Positions 3,756 through 57,258 of a DNA stretch of 64,000 bases are shown here, piece by piece. The stretch comes from an uncultured delta proteobacterium (GTDB taxonomy: Bacteria > Desulfobacterota > Syntrophobacteria > BM002), in assembly GCA_963712115.1 (NCBI GenBank), contig CAVQGX010000032.1, forward strand, positions 64,001 through 128,000, given 5' to 3'. Every line of letters begins with the position of its first letter. Positions within the stretch are counted from its first letter, which is position 1. Made by a program: the position numbers and the translations under genes. Under the pieces are notes generated by a model, which saw nothing but the letters and a program-made list of their open reading frames with translations, searched no databases and was not told the DNA's origin.

Positions 3756-3803
3756 CAGGAGTTTCCCCAAAAATATTTTTGTGACATAGGCCACGGGGAA
3801 GCT
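3756..3803. mobile_element. Family C MITE-like terminal fragment
   Basis: caggagtttccccaaaaatatttttgtgacataggccacggggaagct closely matches 58951-58999 and the reverse complement of 32498-32545. Confidence 0.85.
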
Positions 3804-3805
3804 GC

Positions 3806-3835
3806 GAACCGCTGATCGTCCGGCTCATCCACATA
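3806..3835. repeat. Exact 30-bp duplicate of lptD 3' coding sequence (3890-3919)
   Basis: gaaccgctgatcgtccggctcatccacata occurs at both positions. Confidence 0.95.
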
Positions 3836-6076
3836 TCAGAATGTCTGCGCCTTAAGCTCACCAACCCCGTAAAGTTTGATACCCACTGTGAACCGCTGAT
3901 CGTCCGGCTCATCCACATAGCTGAAGGAGATGCCCCAACATTGCCTCTCTATGATCAGATTGTATTCGTTCTTGATCTTTTCGTTCGTGTCTAGCCGGTA
4001 GTTAGCTCGAAGATTCAGAGAAACTCCCTCCCACAACTTCAGACCTAGTTTGGCGTCGATCTCATCCAAAAGGGTCTTGCCGTCTCGGTCGAGTTGCCGC
4101 TGGTAGTCAATATTCAGGCTATCTCCTCGCTCGTCCCAAAGCGCCGCCAACAGGTTATGACTCTTAAACTCTTCATCATAAAGCGACAGCTCGTTCTTGT
4201 AGGTTAGGGTTATATAGCGTCTGGGGGTGAGGTCTAGCTGCGTGAAGACGTTTGAAAAGGGGCGCTTCCTGGTGGTGCTAGGATCATCTTCTCCCCCGTC
4301 GGGCTGGCTGATATCGTAGTGCTGGCTCAGCAGCAATCGAGCGACGTCAAGGTATTCCACCTGGTCGGGACTCTTGTCCAGGCGAGCGGAAAAAAAGTTG
4401 GTCAGGCTGTAGTTTAAACGATTCCTACTGTTAATCCTGTCGGTGGCGTCAAAAAAGGGCAATTTGCTTTGGCTTACTTCAGGCCTGTATTCATAAAGGA
4501 TATTCGGCCTCACCGTGTGTTTGGTCTTAGTCCATGTCTCTCCCTCCATCTCGAAGATCCTCACGATTTCGGCCGATCCTTCCATCCCCGTCTCGAAGAT
4601 TTCTCGGCTCTGAAAGGTCTTTTCTTTAACCCTGCTGTCTGCAGACTCGTCGTACTGGTCAATTAAGTAGAGTGTCTCCAAAAAACCAACAAAAGGCTCG
4701 AGTTCCAGGTACCCGCCCCTACGAAGCGGTAAGGACAACCGTGGAGTAGCGTTCAGTCGATTGCCCCTGGTACCTTCTGGCCTCCAGTAATTTACATAAC
4801 CCGCATCTGCTTCGATAAAAAAGGGCCCCCCCAATAGCGGTTGTCTGGAAGCGTTGTAGGTAATTAAGGGAAGCTGCTGTAGCTGGGTTTCGTCCAAATC
4901 GCTGTCCAGGTTCTGATAATAATGCAGCTGGAAGTTGGCGGATTGGGTAGGCCAAATCTTGTTTAACAGGAGCACTGACTCCCGGGTAGTAACTGTTTCG
5001 TCATTGATTAGACCCCGGCCGAAGGTATTCCTCAATTCCTGGTCGGACTCGCGCCAGCTATTGTATCCTGTGTTAAACGCTCTGAGATAATCGGGATCAC
5101 TGACAAAATCGAGATCCAGGTTTCCCTGAACCTGATAGGGCAAAACAAAATCCTGCTTGGACCGCCACCACCAGCGATCCCGCGTTATTCTGCGGAGGCC
5201 GGCAGCGCTCTCATAGTTATCCTCTTGTAGATCACTTTTGCTTGCCTGATCATCAAGATAATTGAAACGCAACTCGCCCTTACTCTGTGAGCTGGCAGCA
5301 TAACGAAATTCGGGTCCCATCATCAGGCCGCGCTTGCTCATATAGTGGGAGTAGATAGTTGCATCCGTGCTTCTGGAAATAGCCCAGAAAAAGGGCAGGT
5401 CAAAGTCGTATCCCAGCCGTTCACCTAATCCAAAGCGGGGCATCAACAGCCCGGTTTGTCTCTTTGTTTTGGCTGGAAAGGCCAGATAGGGGCTGTAGAG
5501 CACAGGGGCGCGTCCTAGATGAAATCTTGCGTGTTTGGCAAAACCGTATCCTTCCACAGTAACTTTCAGGTCACTGGTTCGGAAATGCCAACTGGGCTCG
5601 TCGCCGTCACAGGTAGTGAAGGTCCCATCCCTCACATGGTAGGTTTGCGGACCTAGCTTTTCCACCAGGGCACCACTGAAGTGAAAATTACCATCCGCGA
5701 GGAAGCCTCTGCCAAACTCGATTAGACCCGTTTCCTTCTCCAGGTCCAGATAGGCACTTTCCCCCTCCAACCAGTCCTTATCCTTCTCTATGCGAATATC
5801 GCCTTCAACTATGGCCTCCATGCTGGCTGCATCCAAGCGAATCTGGTCTGCAAATATAACACTACCCTTGGCGTGCAAAATGACATTACCACTGGCCGTG
5901 TAGATATCCTGCCTTTCATCGTAGGAGAAATTGTCGGCCCTCAGCCGGTAGCCAGAATCCTCTTCCCCCTGAGCGGTGAATTTTTCAGCTCTGTCCTTTG
6001 ACTCTGCGGGCAGTTTGGCAGGGAATAAGAATGTCACAAATAGGCAAAGCCCGAGCATTCTTATTGTCCTTCTCAT
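3836..6076 (-). CDS. lptD: LPS-assembly outer membrane protein
   Basis: Signal peptide, OstA-like N-terminus, FTTCD..PSW, KRQTGLLMP, C-terminal QCW beta-barrel region; 746 aa. Confidence 0.9.
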   Translation of the reverse strand: MRRTIRMLGLCLFVTFLFPAKLPAESKDRAEKFTAQGEEDSGYRLRADNFSYDERQDIYTASGNVILHAKGSVIFADQIRLDAASMEAIVEGDIRIEKDKDWLEGESAYLDLEKETGLIEFGRGFLADGNFHFSGALVEKLGPQTYHVRDGTFTTCDGDEPSWHFRTSDLKVTVEGYGFAKHARFHLGRAPVLYSPYLAFPAKTKRQTGLLMPRFGLGERLGYDFDLPFFWAISRSTDATIYSHYMSKRGLMMGPEFRYAASSQSKGELRFNYLDDQASKSDLQEDNYESAAGLRRITRDRWWWRSKQDFVLPYQVQGNLDLDFVSDPDYLRAFNTGYNSWRESDQELRNTFGRGLINDETVTTRESVLLLNKIWPTQSANFQLHYYQNLDSDLDETQLQQLPLITYNASRQPLLGGPFFIEADAGYVNYWRPEGTRGNRLNATPRLSLPLRRGGYLELEPFVGFLETLYLIDQYDESADSRVKEKTFQSREIFETGMEGSAEIVRIFEMEGETWTKTKHTVRPNILYEYRPEVSQSKLPFFDATDRINSRNRLNYSLTNFFSARLDKSPDQVEYLDVARLLLSQHYDISQPDGGEDDPSTTRKRPFSNVFTQLDLTPRRYITLTYKNELSLYDEEFKSHNLLAALWDERGDSLNIDYQRQLDRDGKTLLDEIDAKLGLKLWEGVSLNLRANYRLDTNEKIKNEYNLIIERQCWGISFSYVDEPDDQRFTVGIKLYGVGELKAQTF

Positions 6077-7792: not shown

Positions 7793-9928
7793 TTAGTATA
7801 TTGAACCAACGCGCTCCAGGGGCGCGAAGCCTAGATGGAGCAACCTGGTGCGCCCATCCTCAAACTGAATCTGCACCTTCACCCTGTCAGGGACGGCAAT
7901 TACCCTTCCTCTCCCAAAAAATGGATGCCGTACGGCATCTCCGGGACTGAATCCGGTTTCTTCTTCCAGCTCAGCCTTACTAACTGGAGCGGTATAAGCT
8001 TCCACTTCGTCTCCGTCATGGAAATAGTTGCCCCCTGGAAGTTCTCGTAAGAAGAGGGAAAGCGGGGCGGAATGAAAACCCGTTCTTCGATCATAAATAC
8101 GACGGGGGCAGCAGAGGTAGAGGAACTCTTTTGCTCGGGTTACTGCCACATAGAGCAACCGCCGTTCCTCTTCCAACACATCTTCATCAGCGTAAGCGTG
8201 GCTGGGAGGCAAGCGCCCCTCCACCGCAGAAATCAAAAAGACTGCACGCCACTCCAATCCCTTGGCCGAATGAATGGTGGAGAGCACCAGGTGGTCCTTG
8301 GCTAAATCTGGATGGTTTTCGGGAATGTTAGAACTTGGTGGCTCCAGGGCAACGTCCGCCAGGAACTCCTCCAAGCGCTCGTACTTCAAGGTCCAGTCTT
8401 GCAGATAATCCAACTCTCTTAGTCGTTTCGGATAGTCGTCATATTTGCTCACCAGAACTGGTTCGTAGTAGTCGCGGACCGCCCTTACTTGCTGGCTTAC
8501 GGTGAGACCAGCTTTGGAAAGTTCTTCGAATAAGTGCACCAGACGGTGAAGACCATGTTTGGCAGGAAGTTTTCGAGCATATGAGGCCAGTCTCTCTAGG
8601 CCCTTGCTGCTCTGACCGAGGTATTGAATAATTTCCTGACTGCGTTTGCTTCCTACCTGGCTGACTAGAAGTAGCAGCCGATTCCAACTGATTCGATCGC
8701 CGGGGCTTTTGAGGGCGCGCAAATGCGCCAGTAGATCTTTCACATGGGCCGACTCTATGAATTTAAAGCCACCATATTTCACAAAATTAATTCCCAGCCT
8801 AGTCAAGGCCACTTCGAGGTCGAAGGAATGGTAGCTCGCCCTGAAGAGCACGGCGATTTCCTTCAGGGGCACCCCTTTAAGTTGCAGTTCCTTTATTTTC
8901 CTGCAGATGTAATCGGACTGAGCGGACTCGTCCTCTGGCCTTAATAACCAAGGACGCTCTCCCTCGGCCTTGCGGGTGTAAAGACACTTAGTGTATTTCT
9001 GCCGCGACGACTGAATTATGCCATTGGCGAGGTCGAGCACAGGTTGAGGACTGCGATAGTTCTCCTCCAACTTCAAGACTCTCGACTGGGGAAACAATTT
9101 AGGAAAGTCCAAAATATTGCGGAAGTGAGCACCCCGAAAAGAATAAATCGACTGGCTGTCGTCGCCCACCACCATGACATTCTGATGAGACGTTGCCAGA
9201 GCTTGAACTATTTCAGCCTGCAAAATATTGGTATCCTGGTACTCATCGACTAGAAGGTAACTGTAGTGGGCAGAGAGCTGCAAGCAAACCTCTTGGTGCT
9301 CCCGCAGCAACCTGCTGAGATATACCAGCAAGTCGTCAAAATCCAACATCTGATGCTGACGTTTGTATGAGTTATAATGCTGCCGTAATTCCGACAGTTC
9401 TACCTGATATTGGAGGAACTGCTCATATTCACAAGTAAGCACCTGCTCCAGAGTCTCAGCCCGATTTACCGACTTACTAAAGATGTCCGAGATAGTGGAC
9501 TTCTTGGGAAAACGTCTGTTTTGCTCACGAAAGCCAAGATTTCCCACCAGAAAATTCAACACATCTTCCGCATCTGACCGATCGATGATACTGAAATCAG
9601 ATCCGAGAGAAAGGTATGTGCCATAGCGGTGCAGCACCCTGTTGGCAAGCCAGTGGAAAGTTCCTCCCACCACCTTTTGACAACGATGATCGAGCATCGA
9701 GATTGCTCGAGATATCATTTCGCTGGAGGCTCTCCGAGTGAAGGTTAAGAGCAGAATGGATCCCGGGTCCACCCCTTGCTCCACTAGCCAGGCAACCCTA
9801 TAAACCAAGGTTCGGGTTTTACCGCTACCCGCACCGGCTACAACCAGCATCGGCCCATCCCCTGCAGTGACCGCTTGGTATTGGGCTTCGTTTAGCTCAC
9901 CTTTGTAGTTGATACGTCTCGTTGTCAT
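7793..9928 (-). CDS. UvrD/PcrA/Rep family ATP-dependent DNA helicase
   Basis: AGAGSGKT, VDEYQD, GDDSQSIYSFRGA, STIHSAKGLEW, EERRLLYVAVTRA; C-terminal Tudor-like GDAVRHPFFGRG. Confidence 0.93.
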   Translation of the reverse strand: MTTRRINYKGELNEAQYQAVTAGDGPMLVVAGAGSGKTRTLVYRVAWLVEQGVDPGSILLLTFTRRASSEMISRAISMLDHRCQKVVGGTFHWLANRVLHRYGTYLSLGSDFSIIDRSDAEDVLNFLVGNLGFREQNRRFPKKSTISDIFSKSVNRAETLEQVLTCEYEQFLQYQVELSELRQHYNSYKRQHQMLDFDDLLVYLSRLLREHQEVCLQLSAHYSYLLVDEYQDTNILQAEIVQALATSHQNVMVVGDDSQSIYSFRGAHFRNILDFPKLFPQSRVLKLEENYRSPQPVLDLANGIIQSSRQKYTKCLYTRKAEGERPWLLRPEDESAQSDYICRKIKELQLKGVPLKEIAVLFRASYHSFDLEVALTRLGINFVKYGGFKFIESAHVKDLLAHLRALKSPGDRISWNRLLLLVSQVGSKRSQEIIQYLGQSSKGLERLASYARKLPAKHGLHRLVHLFEELSKAGLTVSQQVRAVRDYYEPVLVSKYDDYPKRLRELDYLQDWTLKYERLEEFLADVALEPPSSNIPENHPDLAKDHLVLSTIHSAKGLEWRAVFLISAVEGRLPPSHAYADEDVLEEERRLLYVAVTRAKEFLYLCCPRRIYDRRTGFHSAPLSLFLRELPGGNYFHDGDEVEAYTAPVSKAELEEETGFSPGDAVRHPFFGRGRVIAVPDRVKVQIQFEDGRTRLLHLGFAPLERVGSIY

Positions 9929-51137: not shown

Positions 51138-52181
51138 TTAGAGAGTTTCTTCCAACATTTTGCTCAAGAGTTTGGCAGTGTAGTCCACTAAAGGAATAAT
51201 CCGAGAATAGTCCATTCTAGTCGGGCCAATCACGCCGAGAGTGCCCAGAATTTCATCGCCGCTCGCATAAGGAGAAGTAATAAAGCTCACACTTTCCATG
51301 TCCAGCAACTCACTTTCAGAGCCAATAAAAATGTTTACTCCCCCAGCCGACATACTTTTGTCCAAGAGATCTATTATCCTACTCTTTTCCTCAAAAGCAT
51401 CAAAGATGCGCCTCATCTGCACAACGTCAGCAAATTCTGGATTATCCAGGAGATTGGTCCTGCCTTCTATGTAGATCTCGCTATCTTCTATGTTCTCCTG
51501 CAAAGCTTTCTGACTTAATTCCAAGGCCTTGGAGAGTAAGCGTTCAAATAGCACTTTTTCCTTTTTCATCTCGTCCAGAAGCCGCGCCTTAACTTGATGG
51601 AGAGTAAGATCCTGTAGCATATCATTGAGATAACGGCTGTACTTATCCAGCTCCTCCTGGGAAATATCTCCATCGATCTCGAAAATCGTGTTGTGCACGA
51701 TCCCGGCCTGAGAAACCAGAATGGTCATGACCATCTTTGCCCTCAGACGGACGAACTCAATCCGCTTGAACACCGTCAGAGATAGTCGAGGTGTCAAGAC
51801 CACACCAGCCTGATTGGAAAAGGATGAAAGAACCTTGGAGGTTTCTTTTAGCAACCCCTCAACCCGAGCCACTCCGCCTTTATAGGATCTCCTGATCCTT
51901 TCTCGATCTGCGTTGCTGAGTTGTTTTATTTTTAGGATCGAGTCTATATAGACCCTGAGGCCGAGCTCGGTGGGAATCCTGCCAGCCGAAGTATGAGGTT
52001 GATAAAGCAGACCGAGTTCCTCAAGGTCTGCCATGACATTACGGATTGTTGCCGGGCTAACGTTCAAGCCGTAGCGTTTAGCTATAGCTCTGGACCCCAC
52101 CGGCACACCACCGTTTATGTACTCGAGGATAATTGCCTCAAGTACTCGTCGAGTTCTTTCTCCCCGCACTAATTGTTTCAT
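51138..52181 (-). CDS. hrcA: Heat-inducible transcription repressor
   Basis: PVGS, SPATIRNVMADLE, QPHTSAGRIPT, GVIGPTRMDY. Confidence 0.98.
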   Translation of the reverse strand: MKQLVRGERTRRVLEAIILEYINGGVPVGSRAIAKRYGLNVSPATIRNVMADLEELGLLYQPHTSAGRIPTELGLRVYIDSILKIKQLSNADRERIRRSYKGGVARVEGLLKETSKVLSSFSNQAGVVLTPRLSLTVFKRIEFVRLRAKMVMTILVSQAGIVHNTIFEIDGDISQEELDKYSRYLNDMLQDLTLHQVKARLLDEMKKEKVLFERLLSKALELSQKALQENIEDSEIYIEGRTNLLDNPEFADVVQMRRIFDAFEEKSRIIDLLDKSMSAGGVNIFIGSESELLDMESVSFITSPYASGDEILGTLGVIGPTRMDYSRIIPLVDYTAKLLSKMLEETL

Positions 52182-52193
52182 GGCCGCTTTATA

Positions 52194-52220
52194 TTAGCAC
52201 TCATGTCTAAGGAGTGCTAA
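52194..52220. promoter_or_regulatory. CIRCE operator
   Basis: Perfect TTAGCACTC-N9-GAGTGCTAA immediately upstream of hrcA. Confidence 0.97.
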
Positions 52221-52222
52221 GG

Positions 52223-52251
52223 AAATTAGCAATCGGTCGATCCTTTGTCAA
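52223..52251 (-). promoter_or_regulatory. Sigma-70 promoter of hrcA-grpE-dnaK
   Basis: TTGACA-17 bp-TAATTT just upstream of CIRCE. Confidence 0.8.
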
Positions 52252-52313
52252 GACTCAAATAGTGCGCATCTGGGCAAATACATAAGGTTGAACTTAGTTT
52301 CTCCATTAGCCCC

Positions 52314-52353
52314 AAAAAAAAGACCGTCTGGACGGGGCCACATCCAGGCGGTC
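52314..52353 (-). terminator. Intrinsic terminator of the candidate sRNA
   Basis: gaccgcctgga-loop-tccagacggtc followed by T8. Confidence 0.85.
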
Positions 52354-52433
52354 GGAGAAAGGAGAAAAAGAGTTGAAGAGTCAAGAAGGCAGGGCTTTCA
52401 TCATTATGTTAACCTTACCATCCTTACTCGTTT
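52314..52433 (-). ncRNA. Candidate sigma-54-dependent small RNA (~120 nt)
   Basis: Bounded by a -24/-12 promoter and an intrinsic terminator; CU-rich tract CUCUUUUUCUCCUUUCUCC; no sizeable ORF on this strand. Confidence 0.65.
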
Positions 52434-52443
52434 CTACAATGAT

Positions 52444-52459
52444 AGCAAATTCCTTGCCA
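52444..52459 (-). promoter_or_regulatory. Sigma-54 (-24/-12) promoter
   Basis: TGGCAAGGAATTTGCT, GG-N10-GC, close to consensus TGGCAC-N5-TTGCW. Confidence 0.8.
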
Positions 52460-52555
52460 TTGCAACCCGTGGATTGCATATTTATATCATATTGAAAAAG
52501 CTAATATTTTTTTTACTACTATCTACAACTTTTTAAATTAACTACCTGTGGAATG

Positions 52556-52599
52556 CATAATCAGGACATAATCCGGACATAATCCGGACATAATCCGGA
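52556..52599. repeat. 11-bp direct repeat CATAATCCGGA x4 (putative enhancer)
   Basis: cataatcagga cataatccgga cataatccgga cataatccgga, abutting the regulator stop codon. Confidence 0.9.
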
Positions 52600-54045
52600 C
52601 TATTTGAGAACATATCGAGTGCTCCGACCTCCGCCAACTCTTGCCACTATCTCCATTTCCACCAGCTGACTCAGATCACGTCGGGCATGGCGATCGGAAA
52701 TTTGGTTGATTTGGATATAGTAGTCGTTGGTTATATAACCGTTTTTCCTTATGAAATTTATTGCTTTGACTTGGCGTGAATTCAGACCAAGATAGGGGAG
52801 CAAATCCCCAGATCCGTTCAGCTCTGGTCCTTTCAGGGCTTCCTCCGATGGTATGTCAGTGATCCCTGGAAGTCTTTTCTGTAATAACTCTTCCGCTAAG
52901 TCCTGGGGCCGAATTTCGTTACCGTCGCAGAGAATTACTGCCCGTTCAATGACATTCTCTAGTTCGCGGACGTTACCTAACCAGTCATACTGGTAAAAAT
53001 ACTTAATTGCCTCATGGCTTACATTTTTTAATGGAAGCCCGTTGGCCTTGGCCACCTTTCTGAGAAAATGGTGAACCAAAAGTGGTATGTCATCACGCCG
53101 TTCTCTGAGGGGGGGAATGTTGATGTGGACAACCTTCAAACGATAATACAAATCCTCCCTGAAACGTCCGAGCTCCACCTCCCGCTTGAGATCACGGTTG
53201 GAAGCGGCTACCAAGCGAGCATCCACCTGCAAGGTCACAGTACCGCCCACACGCTCAAATCTCATTTCCTGCAGAACCCTTAGTAACTTCACTTGCAGAG
53301 CAGGAGACATATCACCTACTTCGTCCAAGAATAAGGTTCCGTTATGAGCCAGCTCGAAACGACCTTTTCGTCTAGTGACAGCCCCGGTAAATGCACCCCT
53401 CTCGTGGCCAAAAAGCTCGCTCTCCAGCAGCGTTTCAGGTAAAGCTGAACAGTTAACCGAAACAAACGGTTTATCACTCCTGGGGCTGTTGAAATGTATA
53501 GCCCTGGCGATAAGTTCCTTGCCTGTACCTGACTCTCCGGTGATCAGCACTGATGCCCGTGTTTGCGCTACCTTCTCAATAATCTCATACACCTGGCGCA
53601 TGACCTTGCTTTTGCCCACAATGTTGCCGAACTTGAAGCGCTCCTGCAGTTCCTGGCTGAGCAAACGGTTCTCTTCCTTGAGCCGGTGCATCTCTAGGGC
53701 TTTACGGATGGTTAGTATCAGTTCTTCATTTTTGAAAGGCTTAGTAATGTAATCAAAAGCGCCCCGCTTCATAGCTTCCACAGCTTTTTCCACTGTGGCG
53801 TAGGCTGTCATCATGATCACAGGGATTTCCGGTTGAAGACCCCGCAATTGAACCAAAAACTCCATCCCGTCCACACCTGGCATCCTCATGTCAGTTATGA
53901 CCAGATCCAGGTCATGACTGGTTATAACCTCAAGAGCCTCACTGGCATTGTCACAGGTAATCACCTCATAACCCGCGTCTGCCAAGAGTACCTCTAGAAC
54001 CAGGAGATAATTCTTTTCGTCGTCAACGATGAGAATGGTTTCCAT
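52600..54045 (-). CDS. Sigma-54-dependent response regulator (REC-AAA+) with atypical C-terminal winged HTH
   Basis: ILIVDDE, DMRMP, GESGTGKE, GAFTGA, LFLDEVG, WLGNVRELEN; C-terminus is not Fis-type. Confidence 0.93.
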   Translation of the reverse strand: METILIVDDEKNYLLVLEVLLADAGYEVITCDNASEALEVITSHDLDLVITDMRMPGVDGMEFLVQLRGLQPEIPVIMMTAYATVEKAVEAMKRGAFDYITKPFKNEELILTIRKALEMHRLKEENRLLSQELQERFKFGNIVGKSKVMRQVYEIIEKVAQTRASVLITGESGTGKELIARAIHFNSPRSDKPFVSVNCSALPETLLESELFGHERGAFTGAVTRRKGRFELAHNGTLFLDEVGDMSPALQVKLLRVLQEMRFERVGGTVTLQVDARLVAASNRDLKREVELGRFREDLYYRLKVVHINIPPLRERRDDIPLLVHHFLRKVAKANGLPLKNVSHEAIKYFYQYDWLGNVRELENVIERAVILCDGNEIRPQDLAEELLQKRLPGITDIPSEEALKGPELNGSGDLLPYLGLNSRQVKAINFIRKNGYITNDYYIQINQISDRHARRDLSQLVEMEIVARVGGGRSTRYVLK

Positions 54046-54113
54046 GCTTTTCTCTTGATGTGCGACCTGACCGAGCAGTAATGTCTAACTTACAAATACC
54101 AAATTCCTAGCCA

Positions 54114-54203
54114 CCATGCATCACGCATGGAGCATAGGGCATGGGGCATGGAGTTAATATGTTGTTTATTTTTACGCTATGCTCCACGCTCCATGCGCCA
54201 TGC
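54114..54203. repeat. Heptamer-periodic inverted repeat
   Basis: gcatgga gcatagg gcatggg gcatgga ... ctatgct ccacgct ccatgcg ccatgc. Confidence 0.75.
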
Positions 54204-54235
54204 TAACTCTGCTTGCTGCCAGCTTTTCGCAGTGC

Positions 54236-55696
54236 CTAATGTTCTGGGTTCACCGGCAAAGCAATGATAATAGCTGTTCCTTTGCTCTCTAACTGCGAGA
54301 GCTCTTCCGGGGGTGGACTCTTGATATCGACCGTGCCTCCGTGGCTTTCGATTATGTTTCGGACTATGGGAAGTCCTAACCCGGTTCCTGTCTTGCGGGT
54401 AGTGAAGAAGGGATCGAATATTTTCCCTATATTATTCCCAGAAATACCACAACCGGTGTCCACTATGATGACCTCAAGGAAATCCTCTCGGGGGTCCCGA
54501 TACCGAGTTACTACCCGGATAGTGCCCCCATCGTCTAAAGCTTCCATGGCATTAACGAAGATGTTCAGAAAGGCGCGATAGAGAAGATCGCCATCGGCGA
54601 TGACTGGCCTGCCATTTTCGGCAAAGCGAAGTTCCACCCTTATGCCTCGTCGCTTGAGTTCAACCTCCAGGAACTTCAGGTTTCTTTCCAGAACCTCATC
54701 TACTCTGCATTCAGAGTAGTTCGGAGTGGTGGGACGGGCAAAATCCAGAAAATCAGTGACGATCGAGTTGAGACGACTAGTCTCCTCCATAATTATTTCA
54801 CCCAACTGTTTTTTGGGGTCATCCTCCTCCATTTTATGGTGTAGGAGTTGGGCGGTGGAACCAATGATTCCAAGTGGATTCCGGATCTCATGGCTGATGC
54901 CAGCCACCATCTTACCTAAGACAGCCATCCTCTCAGCCTGATTAAGCTGATCCTCCAAGCGGCGCCTCTCTTCGGCTCTTTTAGCGATGATCCTTTCTCC
55001 CCTCTTTACAATGAAACGTAAGACGAAAAACAGAAGACTCATCACCCCCAGAAAACTCGCGATAATTATGTTCTGGAAACGGGTGATGGCTGCATAATCC
55101 TCAGAGATATCTTGGGTAATTTCGAACACCCCCAGAATACGGCCATGGCCCCGCCCCAGAGGTCTTTCCATGCGAAATGGGATGTAAGTCTTGAGCTGCC
55201 TTTGCTTCGCCACTACTCCCAACTCGAAACCAAGAAAGCTTCCACGAGAAATCAGCTGGGATGAGGATTTGCCCTCCCGGGCCAACTTAAAATCGATTCC
55301 CCCCAACCCTGTGAGCCCAACTAAGGAACGATCGGTACTATAAGTAACCACCTCATTTATATCATAGACATCCACCCTGTATAGATTGAATCCGTGAATG
55401 GTGCTACTAACTACCTTGTCCATAAGATCATATTGTTTGGGGTTGGCAAGCTGTATCCGACCGTATTTGAGCACCGTGGGCAGGACAAATTGGGTGAAAA
55501 CTTGGTGGTTCAAGTTTGTGGCCACGAAGAGGGCGTATTGCTCGCTTTTTCTGAGAAGTTCGTTCTTGGCCCGTTGAGAGATGAAAATGGAGAGCAATAA
55601 GGTCGGGATGAAGATCACCACCAAACTGGTCAATGAAAAATACTTGACCAATCTAAAAGGCTTGATGCTTTCCCTGGCGTCCGCACCTAGCTGCAT
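54236..55696 (-). CDS. Membrane sensor histidine kinase (NtrB-like)
   Basis: Two TM segments, SHEIRNPL, NAMEA, DTGCG, FDPFFTT, GTGLGL. Confidence 0.94.
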   Translation of the reverse strand: MQLGADARESIKPFRLVKYFSLTSLVVIFIPTLLLSIFISQRAKNELLRKSEQYALFVATNLNHQVFTQFVLPTVLKYGRIQLANPKQYDLMDKVVSSTIHGFNLYRVDVYDINEVVTYSTDRSLVGLTGLGGIDFKLAREGKSSSQLISRGSFLGFELGVVAKQRQLKTYIPFRMERPLGRGHGRILGVFEITQDISEDYAAITRFQNIIIASFLGVMSLLFFVLRFIVKRGERIIAKRAEERRRLEDQLNQAERMAVLGKMVAGISHEIRNPLGIIGSTAQLLHHKMEEDDPKKQLGEIIMEETSRLNSIVTDFLDFARPTTPNYSECRVDEVLERNLKFLEVELKRRGIRVELRFAENGRPVIADGDLLYRAFLNIFVNAMEALDDGGTIRVVTRYRDPREDFLEVIIVDTGCGISGNNIGKIFDPFFTTRKTGTGLGLPIVRNIIESHGGTVDIKSPPPEELSQLESKGTAIIIALPVNPEH

Positions 55697-55768: not shown

Positions 55769-56701
55769 CTAAAAGCTCAAACGTAAGTGGAGCGCCAGTC
55801 GATCTTTCCCAGGTTCCATACCGAAAGAAAGCCGGTATTTTTCCTTGAGCTCCCGGCGATATTTACTTTCATCTTTCTGATTCTCTTCTCTGGCTGCTTG
55901 GGCTGCACTCCGAATTCCGCCTACATACCAGCCCAATTCGAAGAATACCAGGATTCCGCCAAGAACCGGGCTGTCATGTTCAAAGGCCAAAACTGCTCCG
56001 GCTATAAAAAGAGTGTTGAGTAAAAAAGATGAGGCAGCCTGTCCTGGGCGACCCGCATAAAGGTGGCCTGAACCTGGCAAAACCGCGGACAGTGCTCCTG
56101 CCATTACTGGAGACCTCTCCTTTTCTTCCGGCCGCTGGTGCAATGCTTGGCGAAGTGATCTTGCTCTGGGATAGTGTTTACTCTGTGGCTGGATCCGCTC
56201 AAGGGTTGCCATTGCTGACTTATATCTGCCGCTGTCGATCTGGAGCCACGCCAAGCTTAGGTACACGTTATCAAGTTCTGTATAGTCGGGATACCTCTCA
56301 ATAAACTGCTTGGCCCAATAGATGGCCCTCGGGTAACGTTCCTGTTCCTCCCGGATCGCTATCATTTCTAACAAGGCCTCAGGCCCAACCGGCTCTTCCG
56401 CCCTAGAATTGAATAATCTGATCAGGTAACTAAAAGCTTTATCACCCTTACCCTCCCGACGATAGCACCTGCCAATTTGGAGTTTGGCCTGATCATTCCT
56501 GTCATCTTTTGGAAAGAGAAAGACAAAACGTTGGTACTCACTCGAGGCCCGGTAATAGTCTTGCTTGTCATACAGGTGATTTGCAAAGTCCCACAGACGA
56601 TCCGCCCTTTCCTCAGCCGCGACTGGCTGGGCCAGTACCGTGAAGTGTAAAAGAAAAATCCAGCACCAGCCAAATCTGCCTAGTAATAGGGAGCGAACCA
56701 T
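55769..56701 (-). CDS. TPR (BamD-like) envelope protein with C-terminal hydrophobic motif
   Basis: Signal peptide, TPRs (YQRFVFLFP), LSAVLPGSGHLYAG. Confidence 0.7.
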   Translation of the reverse strand: MVRSLLLGRFGWCWIFLLHFTVLAQPVAAEERADRLWDFANHLYDKQDYYRASSEYQRFVFLFPKDDRNDQAKLQIGRCYRREGKGDKAFSYLIRLFNSRAEEPVGPEALLEMIAIREEQERYPRAIYWAKQFIERYPDYTELDNVYLSLAWLQIDSGRYKSAMATLERIQPQSKHYPRARSLRQALHQRPEEKERSPVMAGALSAVLPGSGHLYAGRPGQAASSFLLNTLFIAGAVLAFEHDSPVLGGILVFFELGWYVGGIRSAAQAAREENQKDESKYRRELKEKYRLSFGMEPGKDRLALHLRLSF

Positions 56702-57258
56702 TGCCTCATCCGCTTTAACTCTTGAGTGGATTGATCGTCCTCATCTACCTTCTTTTCCAAAGCTTTCTCTATCTTCTTTTCTATGTTTTCTCGGTTATTC
56801 CGCCGCTCAACATAGTCGCTGTCTAACTCCCGGGCCTTCAGATAGGCTTTGCCCGCATCCATATAGCGTTTCTGGTGGAAGAGAGCCACTGCCAAATTGT
56901 ATTGCGCTTTGCAGTACTGCGGATTTAGTCTGACAGCCTGGCGAAACTCCCTCTCTGCCTGGTCGGGGAGCCTTTGCTTGAGATAGACAACTCCTAGATT
57001 ATTGTGAGGAATCGGGTAGGTACCGTCAAGTTCGATTGCTTTTGTGAAATGAGTTTCCGCTTCTTGTAGATCTCCCGACTTGAGGTAGTAGTAGCCAAGG
57101 GCATTCCAGTAGGGAGCTTTCTGTGGATGGGTCTGGACGAGCTTTTTGTAACGTTCGATACCACGGGCCGCCGGCAATTCACTATCCTTCGCCAACAGAG
57201 GCACAGTGTTGATCAGCATAAGAAATGTCAGTATGCTAACAATCCTTCTAGGAGTCAA
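56680..57258 (-). CDS. Secreted TPR protein
   Basis: Signal peptide; NALGYYY, HNNLGVVY, YNLAVAL. Confidence 0.8.
   Translation of the reverse strand: MTPRRIVSILTFLMLINTVPLLAKDSELPAARGIERYKKLVQTHPQKAPYWNALGYYYLKSGDLQEAETHFTKAIELDGTYPIPHNNLGVVYLKQRLPDQAEREFRQAVRLNPQYCKAQYNLAVALFHQKRYMDAGKAYLKARELDSDYVERRNNRENIEKKIEKALEKKVDEDDQSTQELKRMRQWFAPYY

Follow-up and report, generated by a model that had tools for sequence, protein, structure and literature searches.

The window, a 64,000-nucleotide stretch of contig CAVQGX010000032.1 from an uncultured delta proteobacterium, carries on its minus strand a module of ~3.4 kb in which two signalling genes stand next to a predicted small RNA (sRNA) gene. 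Read in the direction of transcription, a sensor histidine kinase is followed by a sigma-54 activator, four 11-bp direct repeats, an AT-rich spacer, a -24/-12 promoter, an RNA of ~120 nt and its terminator; beyond these begins the hrcA promoter with its CIRCE operator (controlling inverted repeat of chaperone expression), which belongs to a neighbouring unit (Table 1). An original prediction, made from the letters alone, had listed these elements and read the locus as an unannotated sRNA output of the adjacent two-component system. Each element it named is found where it was placed, and the reading is supported. The claimed histidine kinase has the HisKA and HATPase_c domains of Pfam, and the domains and translation of the regulator agree with the claimed fusion of a receiver domain (REC) to an AAA+ domain with an intact GAFTGA motif. 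The repeats are recovered by Tandem Repeats Finder (TRF), the AT-rich spacer and the promoter follow them, the only in-frame micro-open reading frame (micro-ORF) of the ~120 nt said to lack a real one is absent from 6 of 18 aligned RNAs, and the G+C-rich stem is followed by eight T. What would such a compact arrangement do, and which of its parts carry the argument?

The genome (G000; 4.9 Mb, 94% complete, 6% assembly contamination) belongs, judged by the nearest Atlas clusters, to a class of the phylum Thermodesulfobacteriota, and the DNA runs containing the stretch derive from sediments, among them marine and estuarine ones; other G numbers denote the genomes of relatives. A tblastn search for orthologs of the regulator returned 30 loci, of which 19 are at least 62% identical and come with their downstream DNA, and 11 are distant and fall into three other families. 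Repeats, promoter, RNA core and terminator occur together in all of the 19, which span two families of one class. The original prediction had named conservation of the -24/-12 motif and terminator below orthologous regulators as its test, and both are kept in 19/19 loci. Within the genus, the 321-bp region below the regulator retains 72-86% identity in 15 of the 17 other genomes, and its 3' part, with the C/U-rich stretch and the terminator, recurs beyond the genus, in three more genera of its family and in one other family; in G024, too, repeats, promoter, RNA and terminator are all present. A covariance model of the RNA (R1, built with an alignment of 18 RNAs) scores the sRNA of the window at 141.6 bits (E 3e-27). 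Run against 122 genomes of the class, it finds the RNA in 21, usually as one copy per genome (family f1 18/21, f4 2/3, f2 0/1, f3 0/6, f5 0/9, f6 0/81).

Table 1. Features of the module and of the unit next to it, in the direction of transcription (positions are those of the window unless residues are given)
Feature	Position	Strand	Basis
Sensor histidine kinase, 486 aa	54236..55696	-	Pfam HisKA, HATPase_c
Kinase-regulator intergenic region, 190 bp, with inverted GCATGGAGC/GCTCCATGC-type repeats	54046..54235	-	sequence
Response regulator / sigma-54 activator, 481 aa	52600..54045	-	Pfam Response_reg, Sigma54_activat, AAA_lid_14
DIP2311/DeoR-type winged helix of the regulator (predicted)	residues ~423-481; recognition helix 451-463	-	Pfam, model, fold match
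Probable enhancer (upstream activating sequence), four head-to-tail 11-bp units, TCCGGATTATG three times and TCCTGATTATG	52556..52600	-	TRF
Conserved AT-rich block TTTCAA-N4-ATAKAAAT in the enhancer-promoter spacer	52480..52497	-	alignment of 19 upstream regions
Palindrome TGCAA-N8-TTGCA	52461..52478	-	sequence
Sigma-54 promoter TGGCAAGGAATTTGCT (GG 52458-52457, GC 52446-52445)	52444..52459	-	sequence
Predicted sRNA, ~118-121 nt	52314..52434	-	fold, alignment, covariance model
5' hairpin, purine-rich arm GAGUAAGGAUGGUAAGG and pyrimidine-rich arm	52378..52429	-	minimum-free-energy and centroid fold
Single-stranded C/U-rich stretch AACUCUUUUUCUCCUUUCUCC, 21 nt	52354..52374	-	unpaired in fold
Core UUUUCUCCUUU of the C/U-rich stretch	52368-52358	-	invariant in 18/18 sequences
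Intrinsic terminator, 12-13-bp G+C-rich stem and T8	52314..52353	-	consensus scan, fold
hrcA promoter TTGACA-17-TAATTT and CIRCE operator (52220-52194); neighbouring unit, outside the module	52194..52251	-	sequence

The RNA is placed with its start 11-13 nt past the -12 GC (~52433) and its end in the T-run. The 121-nt stretch folds at -38.3 kcal/mol, with a z of -3.79 against shuffles. The terminator consists of a stem at 52353-52322, of which the consensus scan reports the inner part (52347-52328), and of T8 at 52321-52314; its loop holds a GGCCCC that is invariant in 18/18 sequences. In six of the twelve terminator pairs both partners have changed, and 96.7% of the cells of this element are paired in the 18-sequence alignment, as are 91% of the cells of the whole structure. 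For the whole structure, none of 500 shuffles reaches the observed share of paired cells, the double-change pairs, the double-change cells or the covariation score; the observed count of further pair types is reached by 32 of 500, and slid controls are all far lower. Has this RNA been described before? Rfam 15 (4227 models) has no match in the window at gathering thresholds, and a search of 52150-52700 with E up to 10 gave at best 21.9 bits against a threshold of 90, all matches having E above 2. Because no Rfam family matches, the description as an unannotated sRNA stands, and judged by this search the RNA family is one that no database describes. The 16S rRNA of the genome ends in ...CACCTCCTTTCT... 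and has CTCCTTTCT (9 nt) in common with the core of the C/U-rich stretch, so that the core looks like a copy of the anti-Shine-Dalgarno tail.

Further copies and similar units were also seen. G013 has two copies of repeats, promoter and RNA (L157 and L149), ~63 kb apart; the second is preceded by only the last codons of the regulator and then by an N-run, and is either a duplication or an assembly repeat. G021 (L156, C274, ~8242-8355) has a decayed 3' half of the RNA, devoid of promoter and T-run and lying against an apparent coding sequence, possibly a remnant left after loss of the module. A weak second match of the covariance model in G010 (L158, C116, ~3770-3900; E 1e-5) is a different short RNA with its own TGGTACCATCTTTGCA promoter, C/U-rich stretch and terminator. 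Three more units of similar build lie in G000 itself, at C11:63142(+) (L204), C37:33156(+) (L205) and C5:12488(+) (L203), each with a TGGCA/TGGYA-N6-TTGC promoter, a C/U-rich RNA of 85-120 nt that has no ORF, and a strong terminator. The C11 and C37 units are sibling-like and lie just downstream of a PilZ-domain gene each; none of the three adjoins an activator gene.

The promoter sequence TGG(C/T)A-N6-TTGC occupies the same place in 19/19 loci, and its distance to the RNA core hardly varies (87-88 nt within the genus, 76-80 nt in other genera). The spacing of GG and GC, their position ~12 nt before the start and the presence of rpoN in the genome all agree with a predicted sigma-54 promoter. 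There are two full-length rpoN genes (C17:13955-14431 and C58:2538-3014, with open frames of 493 and 511 aa), one of which may be foreign because of the 6% assembly contamination. Between promoter and repeats, the conserved AT-rich block may be a site for a DNA-bending protein such as integration host factor (IHF); it is called only a candidate since it resembles the E. coli IHF consensus only partly. The palindrome that the original prediction had pointed out next to it is present in the sequence, but of the relatives only the closest ones, G006, G002 and G016, share it, the others having lost it. It was dropped as a conserved element and is probably non-functional.

How would the activator find this promoter? 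TRF describes the repeats as an array of 4.1 copies of 11 bp with 97% matches. The array begins directly at the TAG stop codon of the regulator gene and lies at -123 to -167 from the start at 52433. Because a search of the 4.9-Mb genome for its two-unit pattern gave no second place, even with up to 3 mismatches allowed, it is more than a product of chance. Arrays of 11 bp in 2.8-5 copies, at or overlapping the stop codon, were found by TRF in 19/19 sRNA-bearing loci versus 0/11 distant loci. The units differ between relatives, and so does the helix of the regulator expected to read them: ISDRHARRDL pairs with TCCGGATTATG and, in G012, with GGCCGGATTATG; VSDRHGRREL (G026 and G024) pairs with GGCCGGATTATG as well; ISGRHARRDL goes with GTCCGGTTTGT-like units and SVMKTQAK-EL with CGACCGATTA. 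Set side by side, these sequences indicate that the recognition helix co-varies with the repeat unit. The strongest evidence that the repeats are the sites of the activator comes from G007. Its REC-AAA+ core is 92.7% identical to that of G000, whereas its DNA-binding domain is only 58.5% identical to the one of G000 and 87.7% identical to that of G018, which belongs to another genus. Repeats and spacer of G007 likewise follow the G018 type, and its promoter and RNA that of the genus. G007 is thus a natural swap of a cassette made of domain and repeats, and since the repeats travel with the DNA-binding domain, the four-repeat array is the probable enhancer of the activator. In G007 (L031, 2946-2989) the regulator frame also continues into the repeats, which gives the protein a 15-residue tail encoded by the enhancer. 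With units 11 bp apart, the winged helices would line up head to tail along a single face of the DNA. Direct repeats of one helical turn bound by head-to-tail winged helices are the layout of PhoB/OmpR-type regulators; we know of no sigma-54 activator with this layout.

The activator is, by its REC and AAA+ domains and the GAFTGA motif in its translation, of the NtrC type (Response_reg 5.9e-33, Sigma54_activat 9.7e-74). What is unusual is its C-terminus. HTH_8, the Pfam model of the Fis-type helix-turn-helix (HTH), does not match the last 95 residues even at E up to 10; HTH_DeoR matches at 22.0 bits (cut-off 21) and DIP2311-like_C reaches 25.6 bits, below its cut-off of 27. The AlphaFold model of the domain (predicted local distance difference test, pLDDT, above 95) has three helices and a beta wing. 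Its best match in PDB is 3lmm, the C-terminal domain of DIP2311, with a root-mean-square deviation of 0.8 A over 58 columns at 29% identity and an E of only 1.1e-3; MarR-type winged helices come next. The DNA-binding part of the activator is thus modelled as a DIP2311/DeoR-type winged helix instead of the usual Fis-type HTH. The named NtrC-family equivalogs of NCBIfam were tried and rejected as identities for the regulator: AtoC is best with 500.7 bits against a cut-off of 714, followed by LuxO (392.2 against 800) and GlrR (379.9 against 763), and none of the matches extends over the C-terminus. The domain occurs once in this genome. Elsewhere, homologous domains form part of AlbA_2/HATPase_c_4, Fic, TIR and TPR proteins, and no enhancer-binding protein is among the 17 proteins looked at, which were picked by length from 150 listed representatives. 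Linker and DNA-binding domain together are found in 14/14 sampled genomes of the class versus only 2/387 other genomes of the phylum.

The kinase lies immediately upstream of the regulator in 27 of the 30 loci, distant families included. Its predicted topology is that of two transmembrane helices around one PDC/PAS-like extracytoplasmic domain (residues ~41-205), as seen in an AlphaFold model of residues 1-245 (mean pLDDT 78) in which a long N-terminal helix precedes a five-stranded PAS-like sheet. No Pfam family matches the extracytoplasmic part; Foldseek relates it to the extracellular domain of WalK (1.9e-8 to 5e-7), DctB (2e-5) and CitA (1e-4), so that by its model the protein is a PDC/Cache-type extracytoplasmic sensor kinase. 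TRF finds 7-bp repeats in the gap between kinase and regulator, where relatives have GTTATTA-like 7-bp repeats at the same place; the repeats of this gap, the inverted ones included, may be a hairpin element or an internal regulatory site. Two TPR-repeat proteins (55769-57258 of the window) are encoded on the same strand 72 bp upstream of the kinase and may share its operon.

Taken together, a mechanism can be proposed. On a signal sensed outside the cytoplasm, is it plausible that the kinase drives a single RNA? The membrane kinase, with its PDC-type sensor, would phosphorylate the REC-AAA+ activator, whose winged helix would bind head to tail on the helically phased 11-bp repeats, three to five in number, that begin with the stop codon of its own gene, ~120-170 bp upstream of the start site. 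A bending protein would probably sit on the conserved block of the AT-rich spacer, and the activator would contact the sigma-54 holoenzyme at TGGCA-N6-TTGC across this spacer, driving synthesis of the ~120-nt RNA until transcription ends at the intrinsic terminator. The RNA core would most likely pair with purine-rich ribosome-binding sites (RBSs) and repress translation independently of Hfq. We put the probability of this full chain, from kinase and activator over repeats and sigma-54 promoter to a base-pairing sRNA, at roughly three in four; that the RNA gene exists is more probable than that, and that the RNA works as an anti-Shine-Dalgarno sequence is less so.

Several observations weigh against this chain. 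Taken by itself, TGGCA-N6-TTGC is about as frequent in the window as chance predicts: it matches once where 0.78 matches are expected, 50 of 100 shuffles have at least one, and for this reason the weight of the promoter lies in its position and conservation. The 5' hairpin, although 86.6% of its cells are paired, shows almost no covariation because its sequence is too conserved. The RNA is also not found wherever the two-component system is: the 11 distant loci (f3, f5 and f6), whose regulators are ~60% identical and have the same type of DNA-binding domain, show no repeats, promoter or RNA within 650 bp downstream, nor does TRF find 11-bp arrays in their 1.5-kb flanks. The link to the RNA is thus not universal for this two-component system, which is class-wide, whereas the unit of repeats, promoter and RNA is confined to two families, as the distributions of orthologs and of covariance-model matches indicate. 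As for expression, Logan contigs from metatranscriptomes (four runs) cover the RNA gene in X16, X17 and X19, but exceed both of its predicted ends (X19 record 25, X17 record 17, loose ends in X16). They could be read-through transcripts or DNA carry-over. Being contigs only, and extending past both ends, they give no start, end, strand or level, and because they run past the predicted start and the terminator a discrete RNA is neither shown nor excluded by them; the depth of 0 over 52381-52507 in X15 proves nothing.

The targets are a further weak point. Which messages would the RNA pair with? Two genes have a perfect 16-nt complement of the seed at their RBS, one on C21 for a DUF6476 secreted protein of 137 aa and one on C4 for a pentapeptide-repeat protein of 155 aa, the latter a member of a large paralogous family. 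Complements of the seed are modestly enriched relative to those of reversed and shuffled seeds; with k=13 there are 20 sites, 7 of them near starts, versus 2-12 sites and 0-3 near starts in the controls. Among relatives, only the close species G007 and G012 and, in part, G014 retain the C21 complement, and their leaders are alike throughout; homologs of 51-58% identity have lost it. A search for Hfq and CsrA in the genome (94% complete) gave neither.

Could the RNA act in another way? It might titrate a protein or the ribosome, as a decoy for a C/U-binding protein or by imitating the 16S tail. The 9 nt shared with the 3' end of 16S rRNA, the conserved GGCCCC of the terminator loop, the failure to find Hfq and CsrA and the modest target enrichment would all fit. 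Against this, no candidate partner protein presents itself, base-pairing RNAs usually have just such a layout, with a single-stranded pyrimidine seed flanked by two hairpins, and two RBSs with a perfect 16-nt complement are hard to obtain by chance; we regard titration as unlikely. It is less likely still that the transcript is a cis-acting leader or insulator of hrcA-grpE-dnaK, with sigma-54 read-through whenever termination is relieved. The Pfam-confirmed hrcA, and then grpE and dnaK, do follow the sRNA terminator on the minus strand in this genome; hrcA with CIRCE follows it in many species of the genus and in G020, and RNA contigs cross the terminator into the hrcA leader (X17 record 17, X19 record 25). 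The original prediction of a terminator standing ahead of the hrcA promoter holds here and in many relatives, but hrcA is not always the downstream gene: in G010, G018 and G026 neither CIRCE nor hrcA was seen within ~450 bases past the RNA, which is still linked to the two-component system, the sequence after the G024 RNA is unrelated, and the second G013 copy lies elsewhere in the genome. Moreover, the terminator is strong, conserved and backed by covariation, the fold shows no alternative anti-terminator, and hrcA has its own sigma-70-type promoter and operator. A 7-bp array, AGATTGT in 12.9 copies, stands directly after the sRNA terminator in G010 (L033, 3251-3340), in place of the hrcA promoter.

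Is the transcript translated instead? In 12 of the 18 aligned RNAs a micro-ORF of 6-7 codons, M-x-x-LPS, runs in frame to its end at the conserved CTTCTTGA, and its ATG follows Shine-Dalgarno-like AAGG motifs in the 5' arm at a distance of 9-12 nt, so that a micro-peptide or leader peptide might be the active product in place of a base-pairing RNA. Yet the micro-ORF is missing in the other six, three of which lack the start and three the motif (other genera and the second family), although the RNA core and terminator are kept; this makes coding unlikely. The conserved letters of the supposed ORF are at the same time those of the 3' arm of the 5' hairpin, and conservation of the RNA peaks downstream of the stop, in a part that is invariant in 18/18, so we give a peptide very little credence. 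Hardest to believe is that only regulatory DNA is conserved, for example as a platform for binding where the regulator gene ends, and that there is no stable RNA. The RNA contigs show no transcript ends and the promoter motif alone is not significant, which would suit such a view, but in two families the terminator stem has stayed paired through compensatory changes, which argues that constraint acts on RNA or single strands and not on duplex DNA sites; the nearly fixed distance from promoter to core, and the fact that the most conserved letters lie inside the predicted transcript, point the same way. A sigma-54-driven, base-pairing sRNA thus remains the preferred reading.

Circuits of this kind are known, given the precedents DVU0653/DVU0679, Nla19-Pxr and GlrR-glmY, and the pairing of a sigma-54 two-component system with an adjacent sRNA, to which the original prediction had appealed (GlrKR-GlmY, Nla19-Pxr), is indeed a published architecture. 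In the Enterobacteriaceae (GlrK/GlrR, also called QseE/QseF), glmY precedes the kinase gene, unlike the sRNA gene of the module, which follows that of the regulator, and GlrR has a Fis-type domain whose sites are inverted repeats. As in the module, kinase and sigma-54 activator adjoin the sRNA gene and several sites lie upstream of its promoter: GlrR activates glmY through three of them, IHF occupies the DNA that separates these from the promoter, and phosphorylation raises sRNA synthesis (Gopel 2011, PMC3045617). GlmY is a decoy for a protein (PMC7073468), unlike the RNA proposed here, which would act by a C/U seed and has no match to GlmY/GlmZ in Rfam. In the myxobacteria, pxr is intergenic, downstream of the sigma-54 regulator gene nla19 and behind its own sigma-54 promoter (PMC5568312); Nla19-Pxr resembles the module in having several stem-loops and a lineage-specific duplication (here in G013). 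Pxr, a three-stem-loop RNA that controls development, differs in coming from another phylum, and the RNA of the window has no Rfam match, Pxr included if it is in the release.

Closest in organism is Desulfovibrio vulgaris Hildenborough, where the mapped target of DVU0653 and of DVU0679 is a noncoding RNA directly downstream of each gene (Rajeev 2011, PMC3333781; Kazakov 2015, PMC4641369). The likeness extends from the phylum-level group to the sigma-54 regulator and to the noncoding RNA directly 3' of it behind a sigma-54 promoter, and the function of those RNAs is likewise blank in these accounts. The enhancer-binding proteins of D. vulgaris, all but the one-component regulator DVU0151, have a Fis-type HTH (PMC4641369); DVU0653 and DVU0679 thus differ from the activator of the window, with its predicted DIP2311/DeoR-type winged helix and 11-bp direct repeats. 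The term 'direct repeat' has no occurrence in PMC4641369, the one paper searched for it. LuxO-Qrr of Vibrio is similar in that small base-pairing RNAs are the main outputs of an NtrC-family sigma-54 activator. LuxO is fed by a phosphorelay and not by an adjacent kinase, and the Qrr RNAs depend on Hfq; here, by contrast, the kinase is adjacent and Hfq was not found in the genome. Regulators of the OmpR/PhoB type are sigma-70 activators that have no AAA+ domain. Unlike these, the activator of the window has its winged helix, in the model of a DIP2311/MarR-like kind, fused to the sigma-54 AAA+ motor.

The architecture is therefore already in print; the enhancer and the DNA-binding domain are what is unusual. 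Sigma-54 two-component systems with a neighbouring sRNA as output are known from few model organisms, and those of the sulfate-reducing relatives are mapped but functionally blank. A bolder and tentative reading, which we hold to be possible and on the whole doubtful, is that of a class-specific system in which a DIP2311-type winged helix replaces the Fis HTH and reads the phased 11-bp repeats at the end of its own gene, domain and repeats form an exchangeable cassette (seen in the G007/G018 swap), and the sRNA is the sole output in these genomes and throttles translation independently of Hfq. Because the invariant core copies the anti-Shine-Dalgarno tail of 16S rRNA, the RNA would under this bolder reading compete with ribosomes for strong RBSs, and the system, if this were true, would throttle translation instead of controlling the transcription of a regulon. 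The locus adds a well-delimited, conserved RNA family from uncultured sediment bacteria. Its enhancer is easy to read, which would make it a simple system for AAA+ hexamer assembly on head-to-tail sites, and a compact module with an apparent single target is a candidate orthogonal switch.

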